DNA of 44,565 nucleotides from Anaerolineae bacterium. GTDB taxonomy: Bacteria > Chloroflexota > Anaerolineae > JAADDB01. The stretch's first letter is position 1. Each line of letters starts with the position of its first letter. This document shows, piece by piece, positions 5,031-33,858 of this stretch. The notes beneath the pieces were generated by a model. It had not been told where the DNA came from. It saw only the letters and a list, made by a program, of their open reading frames with translations, and ran no database searches. The translations under genes and the position numbers were made by a program. The stretch spans positions 1 to 44,565 of the forward strand of contig WFQT01000412.1 in the NCBI GenBank assembly GCA_015486895.1. Reading direction: 5' to 3'.

Positions 5031-5036
5031 GAAGAA

Positions 5037-5450: not shown

Positions 5451-5503
5451 AAGCAGAACTCGATGGGATACCTTTCATTCCACTTTCGATACAGGATGCC
5501 GAA

Positions 5504-6712: not shown

Positions 6713-6768
6713 CTGTTCTTCTTAACATGATATCACGGTTCACATTTCCCAGCCACCGCAGCCACGGT

Positions 6769-8328: not shown

Positions 8329-8329
8329 A

Positions 8330-8971: not shown

Positions 8972-9004
8972 CGTGAGAAAATCCCTCCTGTATGGAGTAG
9001 AACC

Positions 9005-10108: not shown

Positions 10109-10109
10109 G

Positions 10110-11249: not shown

Positions 11250-12019
11250 CAGTGGCTTTCCCTCAATCGCATTCTCTTTTCAAGTTCATCAGCGCGTTGC
11301 CGGATCTCTGCATGACGGGAACGACGGAAATAACTTGCTGCTCGTTCCCACTCGCCTAGTTGTTCTGCCGTAACGCCCGCCCGATAGCAACCGTTGGAAC
11401 CAGGGTCGCCGTTGTAACATGAGTTCTGATAGGCTTCGATAGCGGCTTCAGGATCATGGGCGCGCAGAACATCTCCCAATTCTCGCCAGCGCAAGCCGTC
11501 TCTCGGATTCAGGCTCAGCCCTTTACGAAACAAAAAGGTGATTGCGTCCCGGTTGGCGTCGTTTACTGCACTAGGCATGCCGTTTACGAATCCGGCTTTT
11601 ATCTCAGCAAGCCAAAACCACGATTCGGCATCATCAGGCTGTAGTTCGAGCGCCGTGGTGGCCAGACGCTCGTCTTTCGGGATCACAGAGCGAAGCAGCG
11701 GGACATAAAAGGGGCCACATGCAAGGACTTTAGGAGACAAACCAACATTGTCCTCTCCCAAGGCATATTCAACGCGCAATCGCAACCAGAGGACGTGACA
11801 ACTATGCCACATGTCTTCATCAGAGAGAAACCTGTGAGCGCGATCCAATTGTACAAAGTTACCGTTTATCCCGTGCATAGCAGCCACGGCAGAGCGATTC
11901 AATAACCAGCGATCACCCAGATGTGAGGAATAATTGCCGATCCAGACGATGGCTACAACGAGCAGGGCCAACGAAGTGACGATACCGCGCCAGCCTGTAG
12001 CCCGAAAATTTTCTAACAT
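11249..12019 (-). CDS. Membrane-anchored TPR-like repeat protein, function unknown
   Basis: N-terminal hydrophobic helix (GIVTSLALLVVAIVWIG), then TPR-like helical repeats (..LELQPDDAESWFWLAEI.., ..LSLNPRDGLRWRELGDVL..AIEAYQNS..). Confidence 0.4.
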   Translation of the reverse strand: MLENFRATGWRGIVTSLALLVVAIVWIGNYSSHLGDRWLLNRSAVAAMHGINGNFVQLDRAHRFLSDEDMWHSCHVLWLRLRVEYALGEDNVGLSPKVLACGPFYVPLLRSVIPKDERLATTALELQPDDAESWFWLAEIKAGFVNGMPSAVNDANRDAITFLFRKGLSLNPRDGLRWRELGDVLRAHDPEAAIEAYQNSCYNGDPGSNGCYRAGVTAEQLGEWERAASYFRRSRHAEIRQRADELEKRMRLRESH

Positions 12020-12029
12020 TTTCGATGTA

Positions 12030-12320
12030 TCACTGTGCTTTAAGCGTTCTAATCAACAGGTGACAACCGGCCCGGGCTGCAGAGATAGCAACATCCAGAT
12101 GGAGCGCCGTAGGGTTAGAGACGACTACAGCATCCGGCTTGTAGTGATTCAGGGCAAATTCCAGGTCACGCTCTGCCGGATACCCTGCAAGTTCCGCATC
12201 CGGGAGTACGGAAAGGCCTGAACGCACCAGCACTATGTCCTGTACCCCCAACTTTTCCAGGTTGTGAAGGTGTCTGCGGCCTATGGAATCTAAACCTACT
12301 ACAAGGAATGTACCGGTCAT
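12030..12320 (-). pseudogene. N-terminal Rossmann fragment of a Gfo/Idh/MocA oxidoreductase
   Basis: FLVVGLDSIGRRHLHNL...KPDAVVVSNPTALHLDVAISAARAGCHLLI parallels the first roughly 110 aa of 29838-30893. It ends where EKP would follow. The other roughly 250 aa are absent. Confidence 0.65.
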
Positions 12321-12344
12321 AATCGCAAGGGGGATTGTTCGTGT

Positions 12345-13337
12345 CTAAGCATTCCGAGCATGCCGATGTGAAATTGCAGCATTGTAAACCTCAATCACCT
12401 GCTCCGTAAGCAGTTTCTCGTCCAAGTCACGGACATGTTCACGCCCATTTACTCTCCTCCCTTCCATTGAAAACACTTGCTCTAGTGCCCGAGTGATTGT
12501 CCTGGGATCATCGTCAGCACACACAATGCACCCTTCAATACCCTCGATCCGCTTGCGCACATCACCGACATCCGTTGATACAACGGGGACATTGCATGCA
12601 AGCGCCTCCTTAACCACATTGGGGGAGCCCTCATGACGCGACGTCAAAAGCAAAACATCCGCGGCGTTCATGTAGTAGGGCATTTGGTCGTGCTTGATAC
12701 CACGCGCTACAGGAATGTCCACATCGGGATATTTTTGCCTCACAAGACCGACAGCAGCCTGTGCCAGTTCGTATCTCTTTCTAGCAACCGAAGGATCTCC
12801 ACCAAAGAACACAATTTTCCGTTCCAACGGCAATTTTAATAGGATTCGTGCCTCGTTGCGGTCAGTTGGCCGAAAAAGCGACAAATCAACGCCACTAGGT
12901 ATCACATGATAGCGACGACCAGGCAACTTCCTCCCTAAGTGCTCGGAAACAACGATGATCTCATCGGCCAGTAGTGACACGCTTACAGATATAAACTTCA
13001 AAACCTTCCCCACCAGCAGGTAACGCCCGTTCGGACCGACGATTCCTTCCAAATCGCTGCCACGATACGTCACTACCAGGGGTAGACGTTTGGGCAGAGC
13101 GAGAAGAGCGCTTTGCCCCCACTGAGCATGGACCAAGTCGTAACGGTGTCGGGATAGTTTGCGACGTACCATTCGCCAAGCTTTCAAATAGTTGAGTGGC
13201 TTCTTACCCCCTCGGAAATGAAACACATCCACATCTACCCCGGCTTTCCGCAAGAAATCAACCTGGCGAACAATGAACGGAACTGCGTACGGGTGTTCCG
13301 CGGATGGCCACTCACTGGTGATCATAAGAACGCGCAT
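12345..13337 (-). CDS. GT4-family glycosyltransferase
   Basis: GT-B layout with the C-terminal EX7E region LLTSRHEGSPNVVKEALACNVPVVSTDVGD. Confidence 0.8.
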   Translation of the reverse strand: MRVLMITSEWPSAEHPYAVPFIVRQVDFLRKAGVDVDVFHFRGGKKPLNYLKAWRMVRRKLSRHRYDLVHAQWGQSALLALPKRLPLVVTYRGSDLEGIVGPNGRYLLVGKVLKFISVSVSLLADEIIVVSEHLGRKLPGRRYHVIPSGVDLSLFRPTDRNEARILLKLPLERKIVFFGGDPSVARKRYELAQAAVGLVRQKYPDVDIPVARGIKHDQMPYYMNAADVLLLTSRHEGSPNVVKEALACNVPVVSTDVGDVRKRIEGIEGCIVCADDDPRTITRALEQVFSMEGRRVNGREHVRDLDEKLLTEQVIEVYNAAISHRHARNA

Positions 13338-13347
13338 GATTAGGCCT

Positions 13348-15282
13348 TTATGGGCGAATAAAATGATCCCACCAGATTTGCAAAATAAGGTGTATCCAGA
13401 CCCTGTGCCTTAGCTGATACGCGCTGACAGGCAGGTGAAGGGCTTCAGGATCTTTCAGCAAGATATCCCGTATTTCCACAACCCTTGTGGGATCAAAAAT
13501 CCCTTGTTCCCTTATTCTTTGCTCAGATAGCATATCAACTAGCAAGGACCTCCAGTTTTGCTTTCTGAACCAAGAAGCAAATGGTAGCTCAAATCCATGT
13601 TTTTTGCGATTGAGGATAGAGACTGGCAGCAAATCTCGAAAAGCGTGTTTAAGTACAATTTTCTGCGAGCCGCCCCGCAGTTTGAAGTTGATGGGCATGC
13701 GGATCGCCCACTCGACTACTTGATGATCGAGAAAGGGTGAACGCACCTCCAGAGAGCAAGCCATTGACGCACGATCCACTTTCGTTAACATGCCATCTGC
13801 TAAGTGGTGCATAAAATCCCACGCCATATAACGGGCCAGCCCGTCTCCATCAATCACAGATAGCTGCTCCCGCATCATGGCGTTGGTTGAATACCTCCCG
13901 AGCCTAGAGCGCCACTCGGGACTGTACATGTTAGATTTGGCCCCCTCCTCAAAATATGTAGACATTGCGATAATTCTATCAATCTCATCTAGGCGGCCGA
14001 GAGCAAAAGCCTTTCCTATCCGTCTTAACTTTTCCGCGCCACTAAGCCAAAATGTTTGGACCAAACGCCTTATTATACCAGATATTGTGCCCAACATCCC
14101 TTCAGGCAGAAAAGGAATCCTGGCCAGAAAAGAAACCCAATAAAAATAGCGGTAGATATTATACCCAGCGAAAAGCTCATCCCCCCCATCCCCGGACAAA
14201 GCCACAGCAACATGACGGCGCGCAGCCTGAGCAACCCAGTAAGTGGGAATAAACGAAGAATCTGCGAATGGCTCATCCATATACCAGACAAGATTAATTA
14301 AATCGTCCGGTGTAAAATTGTCTGCATCCACACAGCTATCAATGTGCTGAGTTTGAAATTTCGATGCAACATGCCTTGCATAACCTCTCTCATCAAAACG
14401 AGGATCCGAAAATCCTATACTGAAGGTACGCACTGTGGGCAGGTACTGCGCCATAAGCCCTACTACTACAGAAGAATCGATACCTCCACTTAGAAAAGCA
14501 CCCAATGGCACATCACTGCGGAGTCGTATCCTCACTGCTTCGCGGAGGATCTCTTTAAGCCCGCTAGCATACTCTTCCATACTCCACGATCTATTCACTG
14601 CCAGCAAAGGCTCCCAATAACGCCGAAGCGCGTATGATCCACGCCCAACATCAGCAATCAACATACTTGCCGGTTCCAGTTTGTATATTCCTTCAAAAAT
14701 GCTTTTTGGCGCGGGAATATACAACAACGAGAGATAATCGTGCAAAGCCTCTCTATTAATGTCGCGCGCAAACTCTGGCCACTCAGTAAGAGCCTTTATC
14801 TCGGAAGCAAACGCTAACTGGTTGCCTTTTTGTCCGTAGAATAACGGCTTCTGGCCTACACGATCTCGCACAAGGAACAGCAATTTACGTTTAGAATCCC
14901 ATAATGCAATGACAAACATGCCTCGCAGCTTGTCAACAAAATGTTCCCCGAAAGATTCATAAGCGTGAACGATTACCTCTGTATCTGACCTGGTCACAAA
15001 ATGGTGTCCTTTTGCCTCAAGTTCTCGCCGTAAACCCAAATAATTGTATATCTCCCCATTCAGCATCACCCAAATATCTTTTTTCTCGTTTGATACGGGT
15101 TGGTGTCCAGTTTCCAAGTCAATTATGCTCAACCTTCGAAAACCGAAGGCCACGGGACCATCTACTAAAAAGCCCACATCGTCAGGCCCTCTGTGGACAA
15201 TTTTCGATGCCATCTGCTCCACGGCTGCAGGCTGTTCAATGTGTTTCCCATCTATATTTAAGATACCCACCAGTCCACACAT
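13348..15282 (-). CDS. asnB: Asparagine synthase (glutamine-hydrolysing), EPS-cluster type
   Basis: N-terminal MCGLVGIL (Cys2 nucleophile), RGPDD, and the PP-loop LSGGIDSS; 644 aa. Confidence 0.9.
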   Translation of the reverse strand: MCGLVGILNIDGKHIEQPAAVEQMASKIVHRGPDDVGFLVDGPVAFGFRRLSIIDLETGHQPVSNEKKDIWVMLNGEIYNYLGLRRELEAKGHHFVTRSDTEVIVHAYESFGEHFVDKLRGMFVIALWDSKRKLLFLVRDRVGQKPLFYGQKGNQLAFASEIKALTEWPEFARDINREALHDYLSLLYIPAPKSIFEGIYKLEPASMLIADVGRGSYALRRYWEPLLAVNRSWSMEEYASGLKEILREAVRIRLRSDVPLGAFLSGGIDSSVVVGLMAQYLPTVRTFSIGFSDPRFDERGYARHVASKFQTQHIDSCVDADNFTPDDLINLVWYMDEPFADSSFIPTYWVAQAARRHVAVALSGDGGDELFAGYNIYRYFYWVSFLARIPFLPEGMLGTISGIIRRLVQTFWLSGAEKLRRIGKAFALGRLDEIDRIIAMSTYFEEGAKSNMYSPEWRSRLGRYSTNAMMREQLSVIDGDGLARYMAWDFMHHLADGMLTKVDRASMACSLEVRSPFLDHQVVEWAIRMPINFKLRGGSQKIVLKHAFRDLLPVSILNRKKHGFELPFASWFRKQNWRSLLVDMLSEQRIREQGIFDPTRVVEIRDILLKDPEALHLPVSAYQLRHRVWIHLILQIWWDHFIRP

Positions 15283-22533: not shown

Positions 22534-23913
22534 CTATGTAGAAGAAAAATAATCGACGATTGCCTCTGTAGCTCTGCCTCGATTCGCAAAGACGGACTCC
22601 AAGATAGCCCGACTGTACAGTGGCATCCTCGGTGGCGTTTCTTTCTGTTGTGAACAAAGATCAGCCAAGTACTGAGTCAGTTCATCAGCAGATGTGATAC
22701 GCTGAGCGAGTCCTCGACGCCAATTGTCCGCCAGTTCAGGCCATGACCGGGCATAGAATTGCAAAACAGGCTTCTGAACAAGGAGCGCTTCTATCATTGC
22801 TGTAGAGCAGATGGACCCGACGCAATCTGCCCCCGCAATTGTCTCAAACGCCGATAGCTCCTCTCTGACCAAAACCAATCCGGGCTTGTTGCGATACAGG
22901 CCACCATCCTCGTTTGGATGCAGTCGAACTACGACATGTACTCGATCCCCCAAACGATCCGCAGCCTCCTCCAGCCATGCTGCTGCTTCTTCCAGAACAC
23001 GCTGCCCGTTACGCCTGGGGTCATTACCGTTCGAGAAGAATACGAAAATTGGCAGATCGGTAAGTCCAAGAATGGTCGGTAAGTTTCGTTGTATCACCGT
23101 CGTCGGCTCAGCCACTAACACATCATGCCGAGGGCTGCCTAGAGCAACCAATCGATTGGCCGAAACTCCTATCTTTTCGAGCTGTGCCTTAGCGATATCC
23201 CCCCAGACTATCATCTCATCTGCCGTGAGCGGGAAATTGTAAGGCAGCACTGCTCCGTGCATCAGTACACTAGTTCGAATCTTCATGCGTCGCGCCTCAA
23301 TACAGAGAACAGAGGCTGGTGGGTACTGATCCAGCGTAACAATTACACGGCGCGGCTGGATATGTTCCAGGATACGTTTGAATTCCACACTATATGCATC
23401 TATCATATCGGTAAAACCACGAAAGTAGCTGTATCGCCCTTTGTCAGCTAGATTCGGGTATATCTGCAAGAGTGCTTCCCAGAATTCACGCCATAGCGGC
23501 GATCTGCGTCGTCGATACCGAGCGAACATGGTAATATCCGCGATCTCAGTTCCTTTGGTGAAAAACTCAATGCCTGGCGGGTGCAACAAGCCTACCCGGG
23601 CCCCATGCTGTTGTAGGCCACAGGCTACAGGAGACAGCGTGTCACGAAAGACGCTGCGCTTGGAGTCAAGATAGATCAGATGGTCCAGAGGTCGCGAACT
23701 CAAAACTGTTCGACGGCGATGAAAGAATGGTCGTACCAATCTCTTTATTCGTTCTCCACAACCCAGCGATGGCTCCTGTAGTAGAAAGGTCTTAAAGATC
23801 AACTGACGCATAGGAATAGCATACTCGTATGTCCGATACAAAGATGCGGTTTGATGTACATATTCTAGCCAGAGGTCGTCGAGGTTATTAGCGTGACTAT
23901 CTTCAGATATCAT
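22534..23913 (-). CDS. Large GT-B-like protein with HP motif (capsule-synthesis / sialyl- or Kdo-transferase-like), putative
   Basis: About 460 aa. VHVVVRLHPNEDGG resembles the HP motif of KpsS/KpsC, TagF and bacterial sialyltransferases. The call is not secure without an HMM search. Confidence 0.3.
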   Translation of the reverse strand: MISEDSHANNLDDLWLEYVHQTASLYRTYEYAIPMRQLIFKTFLLQEPSLGCGERIKRLVRPFFHRRRTVLSSRPLDHLIYLDSKRSVFRDTLSPVACGLQQHGARVGLLHPPGIEFFTKGTEIADITMFARYRRRRSPLWREFWEALLQIYPNLADKGRYSYFRGFTDMIDAYSVEFKRILEHIQPRRVIVTLDQYPPASVLCIEARRMKIRTSVLMHGAVLPYNFPLTADEMIVWGDIAKAQLEKIGVSANRLVALGSPRHDVLVAEPTTVIQRNLPTILGLTDLPIFVFFSNGNDPRRNGQRVLEEAAAWLEEAADRLGDRVHVVVRLHPNEDGGLYRNKPGLVLVREELSAFETIAGADCVGSICSTAMIEALLVQKPVLQFYARSWPELADNWRRGLAQRITSADELTQYLADLCSQQKETPPRMPLYSRAILESVFANRGRATEAIVDYFSST

Positions 23914-25355
23914 CAAGGGCGCCCTTCAATCACTCGTGGGAGTAGCATTCTCACCAATTTCGCAATCCGCTCCCCTGCCCGTCCATCTAAAGGCCCGCAC
24001 TCTGTTTCTCGAATACGTCGGCGACCATTTTCATCCATGGCAGGGTCCTCCAAGTACTGGTTGATCAACCTAATGCATTCCTCCGGACTGTGCGCTAGGC
24101 GTACGCCGCCACTTTCTAGAATGGAACGATAGTCTGTCCTCCGGTAAAAGCGGCGAACCGACAGGCCAGCCGGGACCCTTGCAGGCACATCATAATAAAT
24201 GTTGACGATGGGCTTGTCGAAAATGGCCGAGTCCACGGTCATCGTACCGCTTACATTGACCTGTACATCCTGATAGGCTAGAGTCGAGAGATGCATAGGT
24301 TCGTCTTCAAGGATAAGCTTTACGACAACACTCTCGTGTTCGGGACTGTTGTATGCAGCCTGACCAGGAGGTGGATAGACTGCCACCCCAGGATAGATCT
24401 GATGGATCAGCGGATGGCTGGAACCAAAACCGCGCGGATGACCACGCACCAAAAGTTGAGCTCCTCGCGCGAGTTTCCCGTCTCGTACAGCATCGGCCAG
24501 GGACTGAACAATATCAATCTCGTGCCCAATCAACGTCGGGGTAGCGCACGTGTAGACTACGAGCGGCCGCCCTGGATCCAATCCTATGCGTTGGAAGAAC
24601 TCTTTGCGCGGCAATCGATACGCCGGGTTCAGATGATGGTCAAATTGAGGTGACCCAGTAACATGTACTCTCTCAGGAGGAATCTCTGGGTACATGTGCA
24701 ACAAGAATCTTCGGGTTACCTCAGCCCAAACGAAATATGCATCGGCGTCAGGAAGGTGCTGGATCTTGGCGGCCAAGTTGTCTCTAGAACGGATCATTAC
24801 AGCCGTAGGAATGCCAAGGCTATTTGCAGCTTCAATTAGTACCATCTCACGCAAGCCTTCCGGCGAAAAACCAACCACAACCTTTGCTCCCCACTTACGA
24901 AGGAGCTCGCGGTACTGGCCCGCCACCGGATGACGCCGCAATGCTCGAGCGACTTTCTGCCTCAATGGTCGGGCCAAACCTAACCAACCTGCAAACCAAT
25001 GTGCAGCCAGCATCGCTCTAGCCTTTGTCAGACTGGCCACTCGTCGGAATCCGGGTCGAGGATGGCCCCTGTAGCTGCTGGCACGCAGCTTGACCCAAAA
25101 AGTGGTCGGATCGTAATATGACTTGCGGGTATAGTAAGCCTCCATGACCGTTCTGTGGAGTTGTGGATCGTCATGAGGGTCGAAGTCCAGTAATCGCCCT
25201 ATTTGCACACCCTCAGGCTGAGCTTGAAGAGAACCCTCGTACTGGTTCGGATCCACCAGCACAAGAACTTCTTCACCAGCCAGCCGTCGCCCCAATTCGC
25301 CATTGCGCACATTGCGCAAAGAAAGAAAACTATCGCAGCCAATGACGATGCTCAT
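23913..25355 (-). CDS. Second large GT-B-like protein with HP motif, putative surface-carbohydrate transferase
   Basis: About 480 aa. LLVRGHPRGFGSSHP plus the two-lobe layout (..VHVTGSPQFD.., ..VNVSGTMTVDSAIFDKPIVNI..). Confidence 0.3.
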   Translation of the reverse strand: MSIVIGCDSFLSLRNVRNGELGRRLAGEEVLVLVDPNQYEGSLQAQPEGVQIGRLLDFDPHDDPQLHRTVMEAYYTRKSYYDPTTFWVKLRASSYRGHPRPGFRRVASLTKARAMLAAHWFAGWLGLARPLRQKVARALRRHPVAGQYRELLRKWGAKVVVGFSPEGLREMVLIEAANSLGIPTAVMIRSRDNLAAKIQHLPDADAYFVWAEVTRRFLLHMYPEIPPERVHVTGSPQFDHHLNPAYRLPRKEFFQRIGLDPGRPLVVYTCATPTLIGHEIDIVQSLADAVRDGKLARGAQLLVRGHPRGFGSSHPLIHQIYPGVAVYPPPGQAAYNSPEHESVVVKLILEDEPMHLSTLAYQDVQVNVSGTMTVDSAIFDKPIVNIYYDVPARVPAGLSVRRFYRRTDYRSILESGGVRLAHSPEECIRLINQYLEDPAMDENGRRRIRETECGPLDGRAGERIAKLVRMLLPRVIEGRP

Positions 25356-26431
25356 AAAGTCGATCCGAGTCCACTCGTCAGCTCTGCTTCCACTATCTCA
25401 CAAATAGCGTGCCAAGCTAAAAGATGAAGTTCCTGAATGCGTGGCGTAGTTTCGGCGGGGGCGTGAAAACAAACAGACACGTGTTCCTTCATCTCTCCTC
25501 CATCCGCGCCTGTAAAGCCAATGGTCGTCGCTCCAAGCTCTCGACCAGCCTGCAAGCCACGTAGCACATTTGGCGAGCGCCCACTAGTACTGATACCCAC
25601 CACCACATCCCCTGGCCGGGCCAGGGCGCGCACCTGACGGGCAAAAACCTCAGCAAAACCCCAATCGTTACCGACAGCAGTCAGAACGGACGTGTCGGTG
25701 GTTAGAGCAAGGATCGGCCATGGTTCACTCTCCTGCAAAAAGCGGCCAACCAGTTCGCCAGCCACATGCTGAGCGTCGGCCGCACTGCCACCGTTACCAA
25801 ATATCAGAATCTTATGCCCGGTGCGGATGGCTCGGACAAAGGTCTGCGCTACCTGCACAAGTACCGGCAACGACTCATCCAACAGGCGCCTGTGTGAAGC
25901 CAAGCTATCCTCTACGATACGGCGCATATCCTCTTCCAATGCCCCAGCCCGTTCCCCATCTGTCTGTAATCTGCGCAGCAATGCTACTGCTTCTGCCACG
26001 GCTCCAGCGCCGCCGGGGTGAGAAAGAACACGGTGAGCGGCTGCTTTCGCTGCCGATGTCGCATTGGCTGGAGCCAGCCCCAGACCGACTTGTGACAATG
26101 CCGGTGCGTCGCGATCGCTATCGCCGATATAGCAAAATTTGTCAAGGGAAATGCCAATTTGATCGGACAGCGCTGTCAGAGCTAACAGCTTGTCTTTGGC
26201 GTCCCGCACGACGTGCTCAACACCGAAGCGCTTGGCGATCCGGTCAACCATTGTGTTGCTCTCAGCAGTGACGAGCACCACCGTCAGGCCAGATCGACGG
26301 GCCTGTGTAACAGCGTCCAGGTCATGAAAGCTAATCCGCTTTTCTTCTCTTCCAGAACTCTTCAAAAGGGCTATGCCATCTGTCAAGACACCGTCAATAT
26401 CCAGAGCCAACACCCGGATGCCTTTCACCAT
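25352..26431 (-). CDS. Fusion protein: KdsC/YrbI-type HAD sugar-phosphate phosphatase (N) + GmhA-type SIS isomerase (C)
   Basis: N-terminal half: LALDIDGVLTDG...KDK...YIGDSDRDAPAL..APANA. C-terminal half: KILIFGNGGSAADAQHVAGELVGRF...ISTSGRSPNV...TPRIQELHLLAWHAICE. Confidence 0.8.
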   Translation of the reverse strand: MVKGIRVLALDIDGVLTDGIALLKSSGREEKRISFHDLDAVTQARRSGLTVVLVTAESNTMVDRIAKRFGVEHVVRDAKDKLLALTALSDQIGISLDKFCYIGDSDRDAPALSQVGLGLAPANATSAAKAAAHRVLSHPGGAGAVAEAVALLRRLQTDGERAGALEEDMRRIVEDSLASHRRLLDESLPVLVQVAQTFVRAIRTGHKILIFGNGGSAADAQHVAGELVGRFLQESEPWPILALTTDTSVLTAVGNDWGFAEVFARQVRALARPGDVVVGISTSGRSPNVLRGLQAGRELGATTIGFTGADGGEMKEHVSVCFHAPAETTPRIQELHLLAWHAICEIVEAELTSGLGSTL

Positions 26432-27270
26432 GCCGTGCGCCCCCCATCTACTACCAGATTGGCACCGGTCATGTAAGATGAGGCGTCCGAGACCAAGAAG
26501 ACTACAGCCGCTTTATACTCATCAACACGCGCCATCCGTCCCAAAGGAATGAGATTAGTCAAACGCCGCACAAAAGCTTCGTCCTGCCCGGCGTACACGC
26601 CGCCGGGCGATAGTGCATTGACCCGCACCCCCTTATCCGCCCAATAGGTAGCCAGGTAGCGTGTCAGGCCAATCAAGCCGTGCTTGACCACGGAATAGCT
26701 GACTGGCTTGACAGGCTGTTGATCATCAGGCAACCCCGGCTGACGGTAGATGCGCTGGTCAGGAGCGATCACGCCCAGATCAGAGGCAATGTTCAAGATA
26801 ACGCCTTTGCCCCGCCGGGCCATCTCTGTACCAATTACTTGACTGCACAGAAAAGCCCCCGTCAGGCCAACAGCAATATCTTGATTCCATACGTCCAGGG
26901 GAAAATGCTCCAGCCGGGTCCAGGGAACATCACTATGTGCCTCCATCTTGGGATTACGTGCAGCGTTGTTGATCAAAATATCGACTCTCCCAAAAGAACT
27001 AAGAATTTGGTCAAGCATGTCACGAACCGCTGCTGGTTGTGTGATATCCGTGTGGATGCCCGTTGCTCGAACGCCAAAGATCTTTCCGATTTCCGCCGCT
27101 AGCGACCGCGCCTTTTCGCCGTTGATATCAACCAGTACGGGAATTCCACCCATCTCGGCGATGGCCTCAGCGTGACGCACCCCTAACAGGCCAGCCCCGC
27201 CCGTGATCACCGCCACACGACCAGTAAGGTCGAATTGACTACGTACACTTACTGCCCGCTCGCCTCTCAT
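26425..27270 (-). CDS. SDR-family oxidoreductase
   Basis: VITGGAGLLG, NNAA, YSVVKHG (YxxxK). Confidence 0.85.
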   Translation of the reverse strand: MRGERAVSVRSQFDLTGRVAVITGGAGLLGVRHAEAIAEMGGIPVLVDINGEKARSLAAEIGKIFGVRATGIHTDITQPAAVRDMLDQILSSFGRVDILINNAARNPKMEAHSDVPWTRLEHFPLDVWNQDIAVGLTGAFLCSQVIGTEMARRGKGVILNIASDLGVIAPDQRIYRQPGLPDDQQPVKPVSYSVVKHGLIGLTRYLATYWADKGVRVNALSPGGVYAGQDEAFVRRLTNLIPLGRMARVDEYKAAVVFLVSDASSYMTGANLVVDGGRTAW

Positions 27271-28139
27271 AGACCAACTCGACGAAGTTTTTTCATTATC
27301 GGGATTTCACTGGGCCAGACACGTTTTACCCCGTCGCCCATCGCCTTCTCGACAGCCCGGATATCCTTGACTAACCGTCGGAAGCCTTGCGGTTCTACAG
27401 ACGCCGCCTGGTCACTACCCCACATAGCCCTGTCCAGGGTGATGTGCCGCTCAACCATACACGCTCCTAAAGCAACGGCTGCCACCGATGTAGCGAGCCC
27501 AACCTCGTGCCCAGAGTAGCCCACAGGCACACCGTAGCGTTTTCGCAGACTCTGTATCGTGCGAAGATTGAGTTCCTCAGCTTTGGATGGATATGTGCTG
27601 GTGCAGTGCAGTATAACCAGATCGTCTTTGCCCAACACTTCAACAGCATGATCGATCTGCTCGAGTGTGCTCATGCCGGTGGATAAAATAATGGGACGGC
27701 CGTACTTACGATGATGTCGCAGTAAATTATCATCTGTCAGCGACGCCGAGGCTATTTTGTAGCATGGTGGGTCGAACTGTTCGATGAAGTCCACAGATCC
27801 CTCATCCCAGCAGGAAGCATACCACATGATACCCTTTTCGCGACAGTAGCGGTCAATTTCCTCGTACTCTTGCTGTCCAAATTCCAACCCTCGTTTCAGG
27901 TCCCCGTTGGTAGTACCAAAGGGGCTCTCGCGAGGGCGAGCCAGATCCCCAGGAGTATACACTACTTCAACCGTACGCTTTTGGAACTTGACCGCGTTAC
28001 AGCCAGCTTCCGCCGCAGCGTCGATCAATTTCTTGGCAATCTGCAAATCGCCATTGTGGTTGATGCCAATCTCGGCAACGATGAAAGCTGGTTGTCCATC
28101 ACCGACGAGATAATCACCGATCCGCACTACGTTGCTCAT
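27267..28139 (-). CDS. NeuB-family ulosonic acid synthase lacking the C-terminal SAF domain
   Basis: FIVAEIGINHNGDL..A..LIDAAAEAGCNAVKFQKR...KIASASL...ILSTGMS...LHCTSTYP...GYSGHE...ERHITLD. It ends at 290 aa, just after the TIM-barrel part. Confidence 0.8.
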   Translation of the reverse strand: MSNVVRIGDYLVGDGQPAFIVAEIGINHNGDLQIAKKLIDAAAEAGCNAVKFQKRTVEVVYTPGDLARPRESPFGTTNGDLKRGLEFGQQEYEEIDRYCREKGIMWYASCWDEGSVDFIEQFDPPCYKIASASLTDDNLLRHHRKYGRPIILSTGMSTLEQIDHAVEVLGKDDLVILHCTSTYPSKAEELNLRTIQSLRKRYGVPVGYSGHEVGLATSVAAVALGACMVERHITLDRAMWGSDQAASVEPQGFRRLVKDIRAVEKAMGDGVKRVWPSEIPIMKKLRRVGL

Positions 28140-28157: not shown

Positions 28158-28931
28158 TCAGACTGGATAACGGCCGGGGGTGCGGCTTTCCTCTAACGGC
28201 AAGCCGCTTTCCAGACGTCCTAAGGCCTCTTCAATAGCTGGAATATCCTCAGGGTAATCCAATTCGAAGAGCGGATCATCCACGACAAAAGGAATGGCAC
28301 GATCACCCCACATGGAATTCTTTTCCAGGACGGCACGCGGCCGAACGACGTCTACGTAACCATTCTGCCAATAGACCAACGGTAATTGCTGACGCGGCAA
28401 TGACTGACAATCAGGTATCCCTTCGATACGTAGCAATGGTTCCAAGTAGCCTTCTGACGTAATCCGCCACATCTTGTAAGGCGTTTGCAATGCCAGGCTG
28501 ACCGACCGCACGGCATCAGCTTCGGGATGCATAGCCAATAGCTCAATCGCCCGCTCAATCAACTCCACCCGGCGTACTGGCTGGGTGGGGCGCAAGTGAA
28601 CGACTAAATCGGGCACGTAGCTTTCATGGTCCCGCAGCCAGGTCAGAGCATGGCTGAAAACGTCGATGTCGGGCGATAGGTCCTGGGCGTATTCAGCCGG
28701 GCGCATGAAAGGCACCTCCGCTCCCCACTGCCGGGCCACCTCAGCAATCTCCTCGTCGTCAGTGGAGACAATCACGCGGTCAATGCGCTCCGAAGCCTGA
28801 GCCTGTAAGATGGAATAAGCAATCAGCGGCTTGCCAGCAATGGGTAAGATGTTCTTGCGCAGAATGCCCTTGGACCCGCCGCGAGCGGGGATAAGAGCAA
28901 GGACAGAAAAAAGCTTGAACTTGTTATTCAC
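28158..28931 (-). CDS. Acylneuraminate (CMP-ulosonic acid) cytidylyltransferase family
   Basis: ALIPARGGSKGILRKN..IAGKPLIAYSI...VIVSTDDEEIA...HLRPTQP. Confidence 0.85.
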   Translation of the reverse strand: MNNKFKLFSVLALIPARGGSKGILRKNILPIAGKPLIAYSILQAQASERIDRVIVSTDDEEIAEVARQWGAEVPFMRPAEYAQDLSPDIDVFSHALTWLRDHESYVPDLVVHLRPTQPVRRVELIERAIELLAMHPEADAVRSVSLALQTPYKMWRITSEGYLEPLLRIEGIPDCQSLPRQQLPLVYWQNGYVDVVRPRAVLEKNSMWGDRAIPFVVDDPLFELDYPEDIPAIEEALGRLESGLPLEESRTPGRYPV

Positions 28932-28933: not shown

Positions 28934-29786
28934 TTACGTACCTCGAAAACTCGTCACGAACTCCTCAATGCTATAGATCTGCGGAAACTGTTCGAGTGGC
29001 AACTTGCTCCGACTGCAAATGCAATGCTTGTAACTTATCTGATGCACCATAAAGCCGTACTCTTTCAACAGTAACTCCGCCAATTCCGAGAGAGAACTGT
29101 CAACCTGCCCGAGTTTCCTTCCGTGAACTTCCAGAAGTAAGACCAGTCGTGGATTCTTGGGTACCAGCCTTTCCATGCCTTTCAGAACCTCGACCTCGTA
29201 TCCTTCGCAGTCCACCTTAATTGCATCAACCCGATCTAGCTCATCATCCAGACGGATCACAGGCACTTCTGCTGTCCCCCCCCCCGATCTTCCTGCCAGG
29301 TTGGGCAATGCTTCCGGTCAGCATTCCGCGCGGTATTATTGCCTTTCCAGGAACCGAACCGACGACTGCACATTTAGCCACGACATTTGTGAGATGATTA
29401 GCCTGTACACTCTTCTCCAAAAGGTCAAAATAATGCGGAACGGCCTCATAAGCAAATACTCTTCCTTCATTCCCTACCAGCGACGCCATTTCTATCGTGT
29501 AGTCACCCACATGGGCGCCTACATCACAGCAAAACCACCCCGGTTCAAGAAGAGGAAGAAAAACTCGGCGCACTGGCATTTCCGTTCCCTCACGTAACCG
29601 CTTCCGCATTCCAGGGCCATCCGCAAGGCGCATCCAGAGCTTGTAGGGACCAGTTATCTCATTGTAGGAAACCGTATACTCTCTGGGGCGATTATAAAAA
29701 GCGCGATAATACCACTCTTTAGCCTTCCGCATCCTATAACCACCGAAAAGCCTCTGGCGAAAACCTCTCACATAATGCCTCAACAT
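28934..29786 (-). pseudogene. FkbM-family methyltransferase split by a frameshift in a G10 (C10 on plus strand) tract
   Basis: ORF 29244-29786 has CDVGAHVGDYTIEMA...VFAYEAVP. ORF 28934-29308 has VIRLDDEL..VDAIKVDCEGYEVEVLKG. Both read through 29276-29285 in different frames. G9 or G12 would join them into about 283 aa. Confidence 0.8.
29276..29285. repeat. Homopolymeric C10/G10 tract
   Basis: Read directly: gctgt cccccccccc gatc. Confidence 0.95.
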
Positions 29787-29837: not shown

Positions 29838-30893
29838 TTACTCGCCTGCTATCTCCACAGCATGCCCCGACCGGAGCGAAGCCTCGGCCGCCAGCGAGAT
29901 TTTCAGGCTGCGAACTCCTTCGCGCAGATCCACCAGTGGTTGTTCCTCGCCGCGCAAGCAAGCCAGAAAATGCTCAAGTTCGTCCATGAACATCCGATTA
30001 CGGTCGAACCCTTCGAATCGCTGGATTTGCACGATGCGTGTAGCCCGTTCGTAGAATGCGGTCTGGTTGGCGTAATAGTCGTAGCGCACTTTGCCCGCAT
30101 CGCCAATGACCTCGCATACCCGCTGGGGCGGCCGTTGCAGGTAATCCAGGTGAACATGCACTGGCAAGGGGCGACCATCGTATTCACACTGCAAGAGTAC
30201 GCTCACCGAGTCCTCCACATCAACTTCCAATTCGCTCAGGTGTCCACCCACCGCAAACACTCGCCTGGGCATCCCAAACAGCCACAGGACGTAATCAATC
30301 TCGTGCGTCTGGATGTGCAAGCACCCACCTCCCAAATCCCGCCGGGCAGGGTGGGTTTTTCGGTAATCTTCGTAGGGATGCCAATCGGGCAAATACTCAC
30401 CATTCACGATGTGGGCGGCAACCAGTCGCCCCAGACGTCCCTCGTCAATCAGCGATTTGACCCATCGTAAACCCGGATGAAAGCGGAACTGGTAGGCCAC
30501 AAACGCCACCAGTCCCTTGTGTTCCACGAGTTCGACCAGTTCATCAACGCCCTCCAACGAATGAGAAAGGGGCTTCTCGATGAAGAGATGACAACCCGCT
30601 CGTGCCGCAGCCAGGGCGACCGGCAGGTGCAGGGCGTTGGGATTGGTCACAAAGACAGCATCGGGCTGTTCTGACAGCGCGTCCTCCAGATTGCTAAAGG
30701 AACGGATGTTGTATGTCGTTTCCAGGTCGGTCCCCGGTCTCACTGTCATATCCGGGTTGAGCACCGGGCTCTGGCCCCGGCTGCGATAGGCCAGGATTTC
30801 CACATTGTCACCCAACAGCGCCCGCAGGTTGCGTACGTGGCGCTGGCCGATGGAACCAAGGCCAGCAAAGAGCACCTTGAGATGATACTTCAT
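29838..30893 (-). CDS. Gfo/Idh/MocA-family oxidoreductase
   Basis: N-terminal Rossmann FAGLGSIGQRH, and the EKP motif (CHLFIEKPL). Confidence 0.8.
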   Translation of the reverse strand: MKYHLKVLFAGLGSIGQRHVRNLRALLGDNVEILAYRSRGQSPVLNPDMTVRPGTDLETTYNIRSFSNLEDALSEQPDAVFVTNPNALHLPVALAAARAGCHLFIEKPLSHSLEGVDELVELVEHKGLVAFVAYQFRFHPGLRWVKSLIDEGRLGRLVAAHIVNGEYLPDWHPYEDYRKTHPARRDLGGGCLHIQTHEIDYVLWLFGMPRRVFAVGGHLSELEVDVEDSVSVLLQCEYDGRPLPVHVHLDYLQRPPQRVCEVIGDAGKVRYDYYANQTAFYERATRIVQIQRFEGFDRNRMFMDELEHFLACLRGEEQPLVDLREGVRSLKISLAAEASLRSGHAVEIAGE

Positions 30894-31639
30894 AAATTTT
30901 CTCCGCTTTTGGGAAGCCCAGGGGCTCCTGCGCCGTTCTTTCGCCTATCCAAAAGCCAAGCTGCCAGCTCCAGATCAAAGTAAGTATCTATGTCTATCGA
31001 GTCAGCAGGATCCATCATGTACGGCACCACTTGCGAACCGTAGAAAGTCTCTTGCTCCACAATCACGTCTGCCCGAGTGACCAACACGGCCGGGCCATTG
31101 CGTGCATACAGAACAGGAACTTCCTGCCGCCTATAGCGGTCGAAAGGCACAGACACCTGCCAGAAATCTTCAAGACATCCATCCACAAGACGCATGACGG
31201 AGTACGGACTGTAACGATGCGGCACTTGCACAACACTGACTACGGTCTCAGCACCACTCCGCAGCAACAGGTCTACAGCCTCATCAATATGCTGCGCCCG
31301 GCGTAACGGCGAGGTGGGTTGTAGTAAGACCAGTACGTCCGCCTGCCACCCCTCGTGCTCAATTAGCCAGCGGATGGCATGTTGGGCTACAGCCAGGCTG
31401 GGTGTGTCGTCACGCGCCAGTTCACTCGGTCGCACGAATGGTACTTCCACGCCACAGTCACGCCCCACTTCAGCGATGACCTCGTCGTCCGTGGAGAGGA
31501 TAACGCGAGTCAAATACTGGCTTTGCAAAGCCGCCTCGCATGTATAAGCCAGGAGCGGCCGTCCAGCCAACCTAGCGATATTTTTGTGCGGGATACTTTT
31601 CGATCCCCCTCGCGCAGGGATCAAGCCGAGAATTTTCAT
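30890..31639 (-). CDS. neuA: Acylneuraminate cytidylyltransferase (second copy)
   Basis: MKILGLIPARGGSKSIPHKN...GRPLLAYT...ILSTDDEVIA...LLQPTSPLR. The start is set at ATG 31637-31639 (TGATG overlap with neuC). An alternative GTG lies at 31669. Confidence 0.8.
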   Translation of the reverse strand: MKILGLIPARGGSKSIPHKNIARLAGRPLLAYTCEAALQSQYLTRVILSTDDEVIAEVGRDCGVEVPFVRPSELARDDTPSLAVAQHAIRWLIEHEGWQADVLVLLQPTSPLRRAQHIDEAVDLLLRSGAETVVSVVQVPHRYSPYSVMRLVDGCLEDFWQVSVPFDRYRRQEVPVLYARNGPAVLVTRADVIVEQETFYGSQVVPYMMDPADSIDIDTYFDLELAAWLLDRRKNGAGAPGLPKSGENL

Positions 31640-32808
31640 CAATACGTCATCCGTTTCTGCACTTCCCACGAACAGGTAGATAAAATGTCGGCGATGCGCT
31701 CGCCAGCATGACCATCTCCATAGATATGCTCAGAGGGATAACGTCCGTGATCTAATTGCCGTTGGATGGCCTCGATAATCTGTTCGCGATCGTAATCCAC
31801 GTCGATGACGTTGCTGCCCCGCTCCCGTCCCATCTGGCGTGTACCGATGTTTACAGCAGGTAGGCCCAGGAATGCTCCCTCACGAATGGCGGAACTGGAA
31901 TTGCCTACCATGCAAGCACTGCGCATCATCAAGCGAATGAAAGTTTCAACAGGAAAGTTTTTGTAGAATCGAATATAGTCGTGACGATAGTGCTCACGGA
32001 ACTTACGCATCCCTCTGGCGATATCTTCGGCACCAGCATCTACATTAGGCCAAAGCATGACGGTCGGCACCTGCAATTCATGGAGAGCCATCAAGGTTTC
32101 GGTGATCTGATGCTCCCCTTGACCATATTCGGTGGTAACGGGGTATTGAGCCACAAGCAAAAATGGTTCATCCAAATTGATATGACCTCCGACACCCTCA
32201 TACTCCAACCAGGCTCGTTCCGGCAGCCGGCCATCATTGCTAACGACCTCCGCTATCAAATCAATACGAGGGCAACCTACCACGTGTACCGTAGCCGGAT
32301 CTTCGCCCATGCGGATAATTCGCTCGGCGGCAGACCGGTTGGCAGGAAAATGAATATGAGCCAGTTTGGTTACCGCATGACGCACACTCTCGTCAATAGT
32401 CCCGGTAACCTCCCCACCCATTGTGTGCGCCAAAGGGATATTCATGTAAACAGCCGCAATGGCAGTGGCCATTGTCTCAAAGCGGTCTCCCACAGTTAGC
32501 ACTACATCCGGCTTGAGTCTATCGAAAATTGTGGGTAACTCCAAAAGCCCCAGGCCTGTTGATTTGGCCATCGTCGCAGGTGTCTCGCCCTCGATGATCA
32601 TATGCACTCTGGCATCTGGCTTGAAGCCATCAGCCTCGATGACTTCTACAACCGAGCCAAACCGGTCCAGCAATGCAGAAGCCCCAACAACCAACTGTAG
32701 CTCCAGATCAGGGTGAGCCTGAATGGCGCGCATAGCGCTCTTGATGCTTCCATAATTTGCCCGACTGCCGACTACAACACATACTTTGCGCACAAACCCC
32801 TCCGTCAC
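31639..32808 (-). CDS. neuC: UDP-N-acetylglucosamine 2-epimerase (hydrolysing), NeuC type
   Basis: VVVGSRANYG...GDRFE..A.A.AA....PLAHTMGGEVTGTIDESVRHA.TKLAH.HF.. Confidence 0.85.
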   Translation of the reverse strand: MTEGFVRKVCVVVGSRANYGSIKSAMRAIQAHPDLELQLVVGASALLDRFGSVVEVIEADGFKPDARVHMIIEGETPATMAKSTGLGLLELPTIFDRLKPDVVLTVGDRFETMATAIAAVYMNIPLAHTMGGEVTGTIDESVRHAVTKLAHIHFPANRSAAERIIRMGEDPATVHVVGCPRIDLIAEVVSNDGRLPERAWLEYEGVGGHINLDEPFLLVAQYPVTTEYGQGEHQITETLMALHELQVPTVMLWPNVDAGAEDIARGMRKFREHYRHDYIRFYKNFPVETFIRLMMRSACMVGNSSSAIREGAFLGLPAVNIGTRQMGRERGSNVIDVDYDREQIIEAIQRQLDHGRYPSEHIYGDGHAGERIADILSTCSWEVQKRMTY

Positions 32809-32838
32809 ATTTGCACAGATTGGGTAGACGTACCCGCT

Positions 32839-33858
32839 TCACATATCAAAGAGATCTTCTTCCCGGATAAGACTATCCTTTGGTATCCTTCGTTTGGTGC
32901 GCTTGCCTAACACATCTTTGATTCGGCTGGCGGGTATCCCCGTTCCTGGTTTTTTGATTCCTATCATGTCGGCGGTAACCACAGCGCCTTGAGGAATTTC
33001 CACCAACGAGACGACACTCTTCTCAAAAATCTTCTTCATCTCCTTCAACCTAAGGGCATTGGCATCCTTATCCACACGTGAGGACAACATCGTCTCGATA
33101 GCACGGATCCCTTGAACAAGTTCTTCGAATTCTTTCGGTTCCAATGAGTGGCGTGCATCACTACCGTACATCAAACGACTGAACGTCAGGTGCTTCTCGA
33201 TAACAGACGCACCCAAAACGACCGCCGCCAGCGAGGCATAAGGCGTCAGCGTATGGTCAGAAAGCCCCACAGGCAGTTTGTACCGTCCTCGCATCTCCAG
33301 CATCACGTTTAACCCTGCTTCCTCATACGGGCAAGGGTACTCTGATGTACATTGCAGCACCGTCAGTCGGTCGTGGTAACGCAGTATGGTGTTGACAGCC
33401 TCGTCCAGTTCGGCCCATGAGCTCATGCCTGATGAGAGCAACACTGGTTTACCTGTCTGGGCAATCACCTCCAAAAGGGGCAGGTTACTCACTTCACCTG
33501 ATGGTATCTTGTAGCGGCCTACACCCACATCCTCTAACAGTTCGACAGCTTCAATCGAGAAGGGCGACGAGAGGAATTCAACACCATGGGCCTCACAATG
33601 CGCTTTCAGAGTCTTCCATTGATCTCGATTAAAAGCCGTACGCTCGAAATAATCATAACGCGGCTCACCTTTGAAATAAGGTGGCATGGGAGCATCACGC
33701 AACGTTTCCGCGGCAGCGATATGGGTTTGGAATTTGACAGCGTCTACGCCACAGCTTGCAGCCACTTCGATTAGCTTTTTGGCATTACCAAAGCTGCCGT
33801 CATGGACGGAGCCAACCTCGGCAACGACAGAAACTTGATTCAAGTTCTCGTCATTCAT
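32839..33858 (-). CDS. neuB: N-acetylneuraminate-type synthase with SAF domain
   Basis: VVAEVGSVHDGS...GVDAVKFQTH...KIPSGEV...LLSSGMS...LQCTSEYP...GLSDHT...EKHLT, plus a C-terminal SAF-like IPQGAVVTADMIGIKKPGTGIP. Confidence 0.85.
   Translation of the reverse strand: MNDENLNQVSVVAEVGSVHDGSFGNAKKLIEVAASCGVDAVKFQTHIAAAETLRDAPMPPYFKGEPRYDYFERTAFNRDQWKTLKAHCEAHGVEFLSSPFSIEAVELLEDVGVGRYKIPSGEVSNLPLLEVIAQTGKPVLLSSGMSSWAELDEAVNTILRYHDRLTVLQCTSEYPCPYEEAGLNVMLEMRGRYKLPVGLSDHTLTPYASLAAVVLGASVIEKHLTFSRLMYGSDARHSLEPKEFEELVQGIRAIETMLSSRVDKDANALRLKEMKKIFEKSVVSLVEIPQGAVVTADMIGIKKPGTGIPASRIKDVLGKRTKRRIPKDSLIREEDLFDM

Follow-up and report, generated by a model that had tools for sequence, protein, structure and literature searches.

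A KdsC-type phosphatase fused to a GmhA-type isomerase and paired with a SAF-less NeuB homologue: a candidate module for a CMP-activated ulosonic acid

What does a single protein do that joins a phosphatase of the KdsC type to an isomerase of the GmhA type within a bacterial surface glycan locus? The question is raised by a gene in a 44,565-nucleotide stretch of DNA from an Anaerolineae bacterium (assembly GCA_015486895.1, contig WFQT01000412.1, positions 1 to 44,565), which is called the window here. New in this work are the HAD::SIS fusion, a defined subclade of NeuB homologues that have no C-terminal antifreeze-like (SAF) domain (designated NeuB'), and the obligatory pairing of the two, none of which we found described; the families of the parts and the pathway logic were already known. 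Isomerase, synthase, phosphatase and activation with cytidine monophosphate (CMP) probably form a self-contained four-step route, and we have good confidence in this module logic. The fusion gene and its parts are as follows.

25352-26431, minus strand: HAD::SIS fusion gene, 359 amino acids (aa), predicted bifunctional phosphatase-isomerase (open reading frame, domain matches, AlphaFold model)
25964-26425, minus strand: N-terminal C0 HAD phosphatase domain of the KdsC/KDN9P type, residues 3-156 (NCBIfam, motifs, Foldseek)
25874-26002, minus strand: connector helix of 43 residues, residues 144-186 (DSSP on the AlphaFold model)
25376-25936, minus strand: C-terminal GmhA-type SIS isomerase domain, residues 166-352 (NCBIfam, residues, Foldseek)

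An initial annotation, made from the sequence alone, had placed a HAD signature and a complete GmhA-like SIS domain on one polypeptide. This was borne out, as the 359-aa reading frame is uninterrupted, both domains were matched and the quoted motifs were found: DIDGVLTDG at residues 11-19, GDSDRD at residues 103-108, FGNGGSAADAQH and STSGRSPNV. The frame starts with ATG, and the DNA reads through the domain junction with neither a stop codon nor a frameshift. The ATG overlaps the stop codon of the upstream gene, which encodes a short-chain dehydrogenase/reductase (SDR), in the sequence ATGGTGA, and the TGA of the fusion gene overlaps the ATG of the next gene (ATGA). These overlaps on both sides indicate that the fusion gene belongs to a translationally coupled operon.

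In Pfam, the protein matched Hydrolase_3/HAD over residues 39-146 (E 2.8e-13) and SIS_2 over residues 179-308 (E 1.4e-24), and the SIS_2 and SIS matches together span residues 179-329. In NCBIfam, residues 3-156 scored nearly the same against KdsC (PRK09484, 86.2 bits), KDN-9-P phosphatase (NF058599, 85.9 bits) and YrbI (TIGR01670, 85.5 bits), which is under the curated cut-offs of 208, 180 and 107 bits, respectively. Residues 166-352 matched the GmhA models PRK13936 (191 bits) and TIGR00441 (174 bits), under the equivalog cut-offs of 276 and 209 bits. A sequence search of the PDB with the fusion gave Burkholderia pseudomallei GmhA (E 5.8e-50) and Moraxella catarrhalis KdsC (E 1.7e-26).

The AlphaFold2 model of the fusion, built from an alignment of 91 sequences, had a mean predicted local distance difference test score (pLDDT) of 95.9 and a predicted template-modelling score (pTM) of 0.80. 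According to DSSP, residues 144-186 form one unbroken helix (pLDDT 92-98) in which the last helix of the HAD domain runs into the first helix of the GmhA domain, and the connector is thus predicted to be a rigid helix and not a flexible linker. The C-terminal half superposed in Foldseek on the GmhA product complexes 1x92 and 2xbl with template-modelling (TM) scores of 0.93-0.95 and a root mean square deviation (rmsd) of 0.9-1.0 Å; normalised to the target, the TM scores against 1x92, 2xbl and 2x3y were 0.92-0.95 over around 186-191 residues. The N-terminal half superposed on KdsC 4um5, which has the cap-less fold, with a TM score of 0.87 and an rmsd of 1.3 Å over 156 residues. No PDB chain spanning both halves was found by Foldseek (best query-normalised TM score, 0.53). 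The parent enzymes GmhA and KdsC are both homotetramers, and by analogy a single particle holding both GmhA-type and KdsC-type tetramers is plausible.

The fusion is genuine and far beyond chance or artefact. The initial annotation had allowed for an assembly or frameshift artefact, which does not agree with the 289 full-length fusions that were collected, at identities down to around 31%. A search of 5.8 billion proteins gave more than 120 clusters (90% identity) that are 64-82% identical to the fusion, 350-370 residues long and of the same Pfam set, with source labels of Acidobacteria, Nitrospirae and Chloroflexi. In an exhaustive search of 1.84 billion representatives at 50% identity, the best 150 matches held 46 fusions of the order HAD>SIS and 4 of the order SIS>HAD, and relatives of the fusion reached down to about 31% identity with the window protein. 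A second search, started from a member with 31% identity, gave a further large set, including proteins of Clostridium, Lachnospiraceae and Actinobacteria. Homologues of the same architecture thus number in the hundreds and occur in at least seven lineages. Cultured carriers found by cluster look-up are Clostridium botulinum Group II strain Eklund 17B (ACD23292.1, CDH91240.1), C. cagae and a number of further Clostridium species; Polyangiaceae and Chloroflexota metagenome-assembled genomes (MAGs) are further carriers, and one gut-derived variant was present on more than 300 contigs. The source annotation was in every case only "SIS domain-containing protein" or "phosphoheptose isomerase". The initial annotation did not recognise the architecture as a characterised one, and our literature searches (for the fusion, and for GmhA together with NeuB) likewise gave no description of a KdsC-type HAD fused to a GmhA-type SIS domain.

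The reverse domain order was limited to a small clade of around 8 clusters, two members of which were placed in their loci.

L095, 8001-9092: reverse-order fusion P0127, SIS then HAD
L096, 8001-9074: reverse-order fusion P0393, SIS then HAD

In locus L096, the reverse-order fusion sits after a CTP_transf_3 gene, a NeuB' gene and two SDR genes, indicating that both domain orders occur in the same type of locus.

The genomic context is the strongest evidence for the module. The genes that recur with the fusion have these counterparts in the window.

27267-28139, minus strand: NeuB', SAF-less NeuB-family protein, proposed ulosonate-phosphate synthase, 290 aa (Pfam NeuB domain, PF03102, only)
28158-28931, minus strand: CMP-ulosonate synthetase (CTP_transf_3), 257 aa (PF02348; PseF-like, 135 bits)
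26425-27270, minus strand: classical SDR oxidoreductase, 281 aa, frequent accessory of the module (adh_short_C2, E 1.1e-43; overlaps of a few bases with NeuB' and the fusion gene)

The initial annotation had described a SAF-less NeuB homologue adjacent to the fusion. The homologue was found and has the NeuB domain only, but it is not directly adjacent, because the SDR gene lies between the two. Twelve independent contexts were compared: the window; L001, L003 (a Chloroflexota MAG) and L094, which carry the same cassette as the window; L085 and L090; L087 and L092; L088; L093; and the reverse-order loci L095 and L096. In 11 of the 12, the fusion had a SAF-less NeuB (274-293 residues) no more than two genes away; in the exception the contig ends 1 kb past the gene. 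A CTP_transf_3 cytidylyltransferase was present in 10 and an SDR neighbour in 7. As a control, 80 loci with closely related stand-alone GmhA (plain GmhA, mostly from Desulfobacterales, with no fusions, retrieved by a contig scan with a SIS-only peptide pattern) were searched for NeuB', KdsC-like HAD and CTP_transf_3 within 8 kb, and none of the 80 had any of the three. The possibility raised at the outset, that such fusions sit in contexts unrelated to glycans, is therefore not supported.

Several fusion loci are flagellin glycosylation loci without amino-sugar genes. L087 and L092 have the gene order flagellin, Maf/MptE-like transferase, CTP_transf_3, pyruvyltransferase, NeuB' and HAD::SIS, with a methyltransferase close by; no NeuC, dehydratase, aminotransferase or sugar kinase was found in them. 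In these two loci the gene set for a non-aminated CMP-ulosonic acid is complete and minimal.

A sub-variant was detected in L085/L086 (Clostridium, GCA_900290265.1 and GCA_023845975.1; around positions 8170-11940) and L090/L091 (Lachnospiraceae MAG GCA_910576945.1; around 7175-10840). In these loci NeuB' and HAD::SIS are followed directly by a thiamine pyrophosphate (TPP)-dependent enzyme of around 590-600 aa, FkbM-type methyltransferases and radical-SAM/SPASM proteins, and no CTP_transf_3 was found within 8-9 kb. In this sub-variant, decarboxylation or carboligation may turn the alpha-keto acid into a different higher-carbon sugar. C. botulinum Group II Eklund 17B belongs to the Clostridium cluster of the sub-variant, which is located close to the gene for the spore protein CsxA. 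Two other loci, L093 (around 9830-14910) and L095 (around 1300-7930), carry an added aminotransferase (Aminotran_4 or DegT), an AP_endonuc_2/xylose isomerase-like TIM-barrel protein, methyltransferases, and one or two SDRs or Gfo-type oxidoreductases. These extra genes hint that the ulosonic acid is oxidised and aminated at a late stage. The SDR of L093 is a close orthologue of the window SDR (E 4e-107).

The four steps would proceed as follows. The C-terminal GmhA-type domain would turn a ketose phosphate of central metabolism into a manno-configured aldose phosphate; NeuB', which is NANS-like, would join this aldose phosphate to phosphoenolpyruvate (PEP) to give an ulosonate omega-phosphate; the N-terminal domain, which resembles KDN9P phosphatase, would take the phosphate off; and the neighbouring CTP_transf_3 enzyme would produce the CMP-sugar. 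Downstream transferases would then attach the sugar to a polymer of the extracellular polysaccharide (EPS) or O-antigen type in the window organism, or to flagellin in Firmicutes. The initial annotation had likewise proposed that the isomerase supplies the synthase and that the phosphatase clears its product, a proposal to which the residue-level comparisons of the HAD half and of NeuB' lend indirect, computational support.

The HAD half belongs to the KdsC/8KDOP subfamily and not to the GmhB or sugar-phosphatase subfamilies. Motifs I-IV (D11xD13, T55, K81 and G103-D104-x-x-x-D108) were invariant or nearly so in the 289 full-length fusions, the set used for HAD residue conservation, and D39 and K79 were invariant residues specific to the fusion family. 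Glu57 was invariant and position 68 was Arg or Lys in most of the set; in a gap-free alignment these correspond to Glu56 and Lys67 of BT1713, the phosphatase of the 2-keto-3-deoxynonulosonic acid (Kdn) pathway in Bacteroides thetaiotaomicron. A 2009 report by Lu et al. in JBC is said to have proposed Glu56 and Lys67 as annotation markers of KDN-9-P phosphatase. The match of Glu57 and Arg/Lys68 to this pair favours the order isomerase, synthase, phosphatase. The counterpart of position 57 was Arg in three of four KdsC-type structures compared and Ala in the Legionella homologue 3n1u. A reading of the fusion as a GmhA/GmhB-like pair was rejected, since the HAD half is of the KdsC type and the minimal loci have no heptose kinase.

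The same position bears on whether the product might be 3-deoxy-D-manno-octulosonic acid (Kdo) or a Kdo-like C8 acid, with the SIS domain as arabinose-5-P isomerase and NeuB' as a non-orthologous Kdo-8-P synthase. The step logic is that of KdsD, KdsA, KdsC and KdsB, and the KdsC and KDN9P phosphatase models give equal scores for the HAD half. However, position 57 is Glu where KdsC enzymes have Arg, and the SIS domain is of the GmhA type (SIS_2, no CBS domains, GmhA-specific residues) and not of the KdsD type. The NeuB-family enzyme of Prymnesium parvum refuses arabinose-5-P according to the literature. A C8 product is thus highly improbable.

NeuB' keeps the Mn/PEP catalytic set E25, K53, Q55, K129, H215, E234, H236 and D247 (Neisseria meningitidis numbering, as for all NeuB positions here), but it has no SAF domain and no residue aligned to R314. 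In NeuB, Arg314 of the SAF domain contacts the free sugar (PMC8208679). The beta2-alpha2 loop, to which the use of a phosphorylated sugar by the human NeuB-family enzyme has been attributed in a review of NeuB evolution (PMC8208679), carries the invariant extra basic residues K56 and R57 (a KFQ-KR motif) and R68 in NeuB', and the C-terminal tail is also basic. The loss of SAF and Arg314 together with the extra basic loop residues again favours synthesis before dephosphorylation. NeuB' was 42% identical to human NANS over 279 residues, almost without gaps and including the beta2-alpha2 loop, in an alignment with an unverified, hand-entered NANS sequence; it was 36% identical to the SAF-type NeuB of the window and 29% to N. 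meningitidis NeuB. Near the sugar site NeuB' differs from NeuB in E134 to M/S and F112 to W. Between the window and the Firmicutes fusion loci NeuB' was 52-55% identical and the fusion itself around 31-38%, so that NeuB' is the better conserved of the two across phyla. The only solved SAF-less NeuB is PDB 6ncs (Leptospira borgpetersenii, 290 aa). It was rejected as a structural proxy, as it is without the basic residues specific to NeuB' (K56, R57, R68, K83 and others), which indicates that SAF-less NeuBs form at least two groups.

The SIS half was 48% identical to B. pseudomallei GmhA, compared with 41% between the Escherichia coli and B. pseudomallei enzymes (the B. pseudomallei sequence came from the PDB alignment, and that of E. 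coli was entered by hand). S55, H61, E65, R69, D94, S119, T120, S121, S124, Q172 and H180 (E. coli numbering) were invariant or nearly so in 120 close homologues and, among 51 divergent fusion representatives, were kept in the large majority. Among them, the Zn/catalytic residues His61, Glu65, Gln172 and His180 (H64, E68, Q175 and H183 in B. pseudomallei) were invariant in the close homologues and present in 41-46 of the 51 divergent representatives, where the exceptions resemble fragments; the phosphate- and sugar-binding residues Ser55, Arg69, Asp94, Ser119, Thr120, Ser121 and Ser124 were also conserved. No specificity-determining position was found when fusion SIS domains were compared with 66 stand-alone GmhA representatives. 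At the level of sequence, the SIS half shows no sign of altered specificity and looks catalytically competent. The concern that one half might be degenerate is thereby answered, as the GmhA catalytic and binding residues are kept in the SIS half and motifs I-IV in the HAD half.

Between a C10 acid and a Kdn- or Kdo-like acid, both of which the initial annotation had considered, the conserved GmhA residues tilt the balance towards the heptose branch. Two considerations favour sedoheptulose-7-P as the starting ketose. The substrate-binding residues of GmhA are all conserved, with no position that suggests a switch in specificity, and a dedicated isomerase is sensible only where the aldose phosphate is not otherwise available. 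Mannose-6-P is a common metabolite that cells already make; to our knowledge, heptose-7-P is not available in Firmicutes, Actinobacteria and Chloroflexi. Sedoheptulose-7-P would be converted to D-glycero-D-manno-heptose-7-P and then to a C10 homologue of Kdn, by analogy 3-deoxy-D-erythro-D-galacto-dec-2-ulosonic acid. The module may therefore make an undescribed class of sugar, a CMP-activated C10 3-deoxy-2-ulosonic acid from sedoheptulose-7-P and PEP, a reading to which we give slightly less than even weight. The full statement (four-step module, sedoheptulose-7-P start and 10-carbon 3-deoxy-2-ulosonic acid), in which we infer the order, the substrate and the product, is likewise put forward tentatively.

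Several points weigh against a C10 product or against the proposed steps. Every NCBIfam score of the fusion protein is under its equivalog cut-off, although the GmhA::HldC protein of the window is likewise under both GmhA cut-offs (226 and 197 bits), so that these two cut-offs discriminate poorly. The window organism has this other GmhA (41363-42457), and the fused copy is not strictly needed for heptose-7-P. A literature search for any dec-2-ulosonic acid name gave nothing, and no C10 non-aminated 2-ulosonic acid was found to be reported; the sole report of a "higher-carbon ulosonic acid" concerns a di-N-acetylated compound of Magnetospirillum, to which no genes were assigned. Finally, a SAF-less NeuB occurs in Streptomyces (PMC8208679), whose walls carry Kdn. 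If the Streptomyces proteins are of the NeuB' type, a C9 product is favoured.

A C9 product would result from the same four-step module if fructose-6-P were converted to mannose-6-P and the product were CMP-Kdn. This would imply a phosphomannose isomerase in the GmhA family, itself a new specificity. The route from Man-6-P and PEP through Kdn-9-P and Kdn to CMP-Kdn is established in B. thetaiotaomicron and P. parvum, and GmhA chemistry gives the manno configuration at C2 that Kdn synthesis requires. The HAD half bears the marker residues of KDN9P phosphatase, NeuB' resembles NANS (in the comparison with the unverified sequence), which accepts Man-6-P, and Streptomyces combine SAF-less NeuBs with Kdn polymers. 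However, the characterised Kdn pathways have no isomerase, and with mannose-6-P so common, an isomerase that is always fused is left unexplained. The GmhA residues that position the seven-carbon substrate are all kept and none is switched, the model superposes on the heptose-7-P product complexes within 0.9-1.0 Å, and the sugar site of NeuB' has the changes at E134 and F112. On balance Kdn is the less likely product but the main alternative, and the C10 acid is preferred.

A further point against the proposed steps concerns the residue at the position of BT1713 R64. This residue is reportedly a key sugar-binding, conserved intersubunit Arg (Lu et al. 2009). Arg was present in all five solved KdsC/KDN9P phosphatase homologues, whereas the position was hydrophobic in all fusions: Ile65 in the window protein and I, V, F or L across the fusion family. 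The loss of the Arg suggests that the binding mode of the phosphatase is not exactly that of known ulosonate phosphatases. The sugar-acid end of a longer substrate could be held elsewhere, or the HAD domain could act on the aldose phosphate itself. In the latter case the two fused activities would be consecutive steps, in which the aldose phosphate is dephosphorylated at once and NeuB' condenses free heptose or mannose with PEP. Fusions commonly link consecutive steps, the hydrophobic residue in every fusion fits a substrate bound unlike known ulosonate phosphates, and the characterised bacterial enzymes NeuB, PseI and LegI take unphosphorylated sugars. On the other hand, the HAD half retains the E56/K67-type markers of ulosonate-9-phosphate phosphatases and falls in the KdsC/8KDOP subfamily and not in GmhB or the sugar phosphatases, and NeuB' is closest to the phosphate-using NANS type, having lost the SAF domain with R314 and gained invariant basic residues in the phosphate-linked loop. 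Dephosphorylation before condensation is therefore improbable, and the order with the phosphatase after the synthase is retained.

The remaining genes of the window place the module in a large locus of the EPS/O-antigen type, with a priming glycosylphosphotransferase, a Wzy-type polymerase or ligase, many glycosyltransferases and an AsnB-type amidotransferase.

29838-30893, minus strand: Gfo/Idh/MocA oxidoreductase, head of the cassette (Pfam; same position in L001, L003 and L094)
22534-25355, minus strand: two large proteins of 480 and 460 aa (weak matches to BFO_1060 glycosyltransferase, the surface-carbohydrate protein TIGR04396 and Glyphos_transf)
30890-33858, minus strand: canonical nonulosonate module (SAF-containing NeuB 32839-33858, NeuC 31639-32808, CMP-transferase 30890-31669)
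39802-43724, minus strand: ADP-heptose module, separate from the ulosonate module (HldA kinase, GmhB, GmhA::HldC 41363-42457, heptosyltransferase)

The conserved cassette, shared by the window, L001, L003 and L094, consists of Gfo/Idh/MocA, CTP_transf_3, NeuB', SDR, HAD::SIS and two large putative transferases. Orthologues of the two large proteins come after the fusion gene in the three other loci, and, to judge from their weak matches, these proteins probably transfer the CMP-activated sugar. The SDR and the Gfo/Idh/MocA oxidoreductase of the window probably tailor the ulosonic acid further. An FkbM-family methyltransferase gene at 28934-29786 (minus strand) was found in two overlapping reading frames, an N-terminal part at 29244-29786 and a C-terminal part at 28934-29308. 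This split probably reflects a frameshift, in a pseudogene or through a sequencing error.

The canonical nonulosonate module was identified with NCBIfam (NeuB_NnaB, 358 bits; NeuC_NnaA, 404 bits; PseF-like, 152 bits), and its pairing with the fusion cassette was also observed in L001, L003 and L094. The presence of the fusion module beside a NeuC/NeuB(SAF)/CMP-transferase module indicates that the cell probably makes two different CMP-ulosonic acids.

The ADP-heptose module was matched by TIGR02198, PRK08942, PRK13936 together with TIGR02199, and heptosyltransferase models. Its GmhA::HldC protein agrees with the second, differently fused GmhA-like domain described initially (SIS_2 at residues 19-148, rfaE_dom_II at residues 217-361). 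The layout at 39802-42457 (minus strand) is unusual, as GmhA is fused to HldC and HldA is separate, whereas the usual arrangement is HldE (kinase and adenylyltransferase) with free GmhA. A sulfotransferase fragment lies beside the heptosyltransferase at 43721-44293.

These heptose genes bear on the idea that the fusion merely co-expresses unrelated enzymes of the inner core of lipopolysaccharide (LPS), one for heptose (GmhA) and one for Kdo (KdsC). In favour of it, the two parent families are enzymes of LPS core synthesis, and heptose genes of the LPS type occur in the window. However, the window has its own complete ADP-heptose set, and the fusion was found in Clostridium, Lachnospiraceae, Actinobacteria and Chloroflexota, which have no LPS. 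The neighbours of the fusion are NeuB' and a CMP-transferase, frequently at flagellin loci, and this context was absent from all 80 ordinary GmhA loci. Co-expression for LPS synthesis is close to refuted.

At the edge of the glycan locus (910-3768, minus strand), an AbiEii toxin/AbiEi antitoxin pair is located at 910-2557, and a small retropepsin-like aspartyl protease and a DUF5678 protein are located at 2957-3768. These genes look like mobile or defence genes and would fit horizontal movement of the region. A Polysacc_synt_2 (CapD/PseB-like) dehydratase reading frame at 4340-5083 (minus strand) covers profile positions 113-291 of 293 only, with the N-terminal Rossmann part missing, and is probably a 5'-truncated remnant; long reading frames on the opposite strand overlap it.

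Sialic acid-like sugars affect how hosts, phages and immune systems see bacteria, and few routes for their biosynthesis are known. The module has a compact signature of three genes, HAD::SIS, a CMP-transferase and NeuB' with the KFQKR motif, and occurs in many phyla; C. botulinum Group II and abundant Lachnospiraceae of the gut are among its carriers. Either outcome for the substrate would be new: the first route to a 10-carbon ulosonic acid, or a phosphomannose isomerase of the GmhA family dedicated to Kdn. The gene set and the predicted mass of the C10 acid, +30.011 Da relative to Kdn, could be used in mass spectrometry surveys, which now begin to report "higher-carbon ulosonic acids". If the C10 reading is true, the sugar would decorate flagellins and surface polymers of widespread environmental bacteria, common human gut Firmicutes and C. 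botulinum Group II, and the TPP-enzyme sub-variant may process the keto acid into other higher-carbon sugars.

Among known systems, the CMP-Kdn pathway (BT1714 synthase and BT1713 phosphatase in B. thetaiotaomicron; P. parvum) is like the module in that a NeuB-family synthase joins a phosphorylated aldose to PEP, followed by a C0 HAD phosphatase of the 8KDOP subfamily with Glu56/Lys67-type markers and by a CMP-transferase, with no amino-sugar steps. The module differs in having an isomerase built in and fused to the phosphatase and in the loss of the Arg at the R64 position of BT1713. The isomerase is of the heptose (GmhA) type, which may lengthen the product by one carbon. The CMP-Kdo pathway (KdsD, KdsA, KdsC, KdsB) follows the same logic, with a SIS-fold isomerase, a PEP-dependent synthase, a KdsC-family phosphatase and a cytidylyltransferase. 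In contrast to it, the isomerase of the module is of the GmhA type without CBS and not KdsD (SIS plus CBS), the synthase is of the NeuB family and not KdsA, the first and third enzymes are fused, and the module occurs in bacteria without LPS.

With GmhA of the ADP- and GDP-heptose pathways, the SIS half shares the fold and the Zn/catalytic and phosphate-binding residues, but the fusion carries a KdsC-type phosphatase, and its minimal loci never hold a heptose kinase, GmhB or nucleotidyltransferase and have NeuB' and a CMP-transferase instead. A gene order resemblance to Campylobacter ptm was also considered. PtmF had been taken for a SIS protein working with the SDR PtmA, which is wrong, as a Plesiomonas paper gives PtmF as an oxidoreductase; the resemblance that is left is a loose gene order with a Gfo/Idh-type oxidoreductase, a CMP-transferase and an SDR.

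The animal route (NANS, NANP, CMAS) shares the phosphorylated ulosonate intermediate, and NeuB' aligns with NANS in the comparison with the unverified sequence. It differs in that NeuB' is without the C-terminal antifreeze-like domain, the phosphatase is of the KdsC type and the upstream enzyme is an isomerase and not GNE. In bacterial NeuB, PseI and LegI, a C-terminal SAF domain gives Arg314 to the sugar site, and NeuB' is without both. Other fusions of the parent domains are GmhA::HldC in the window and a KdsC-like domain joined to CMP-sialate synthetase (the C-terminal domain of mouse CMAS, PDB 3ewi); each parent domain thus has a known fusion with a partner from its own pathway.

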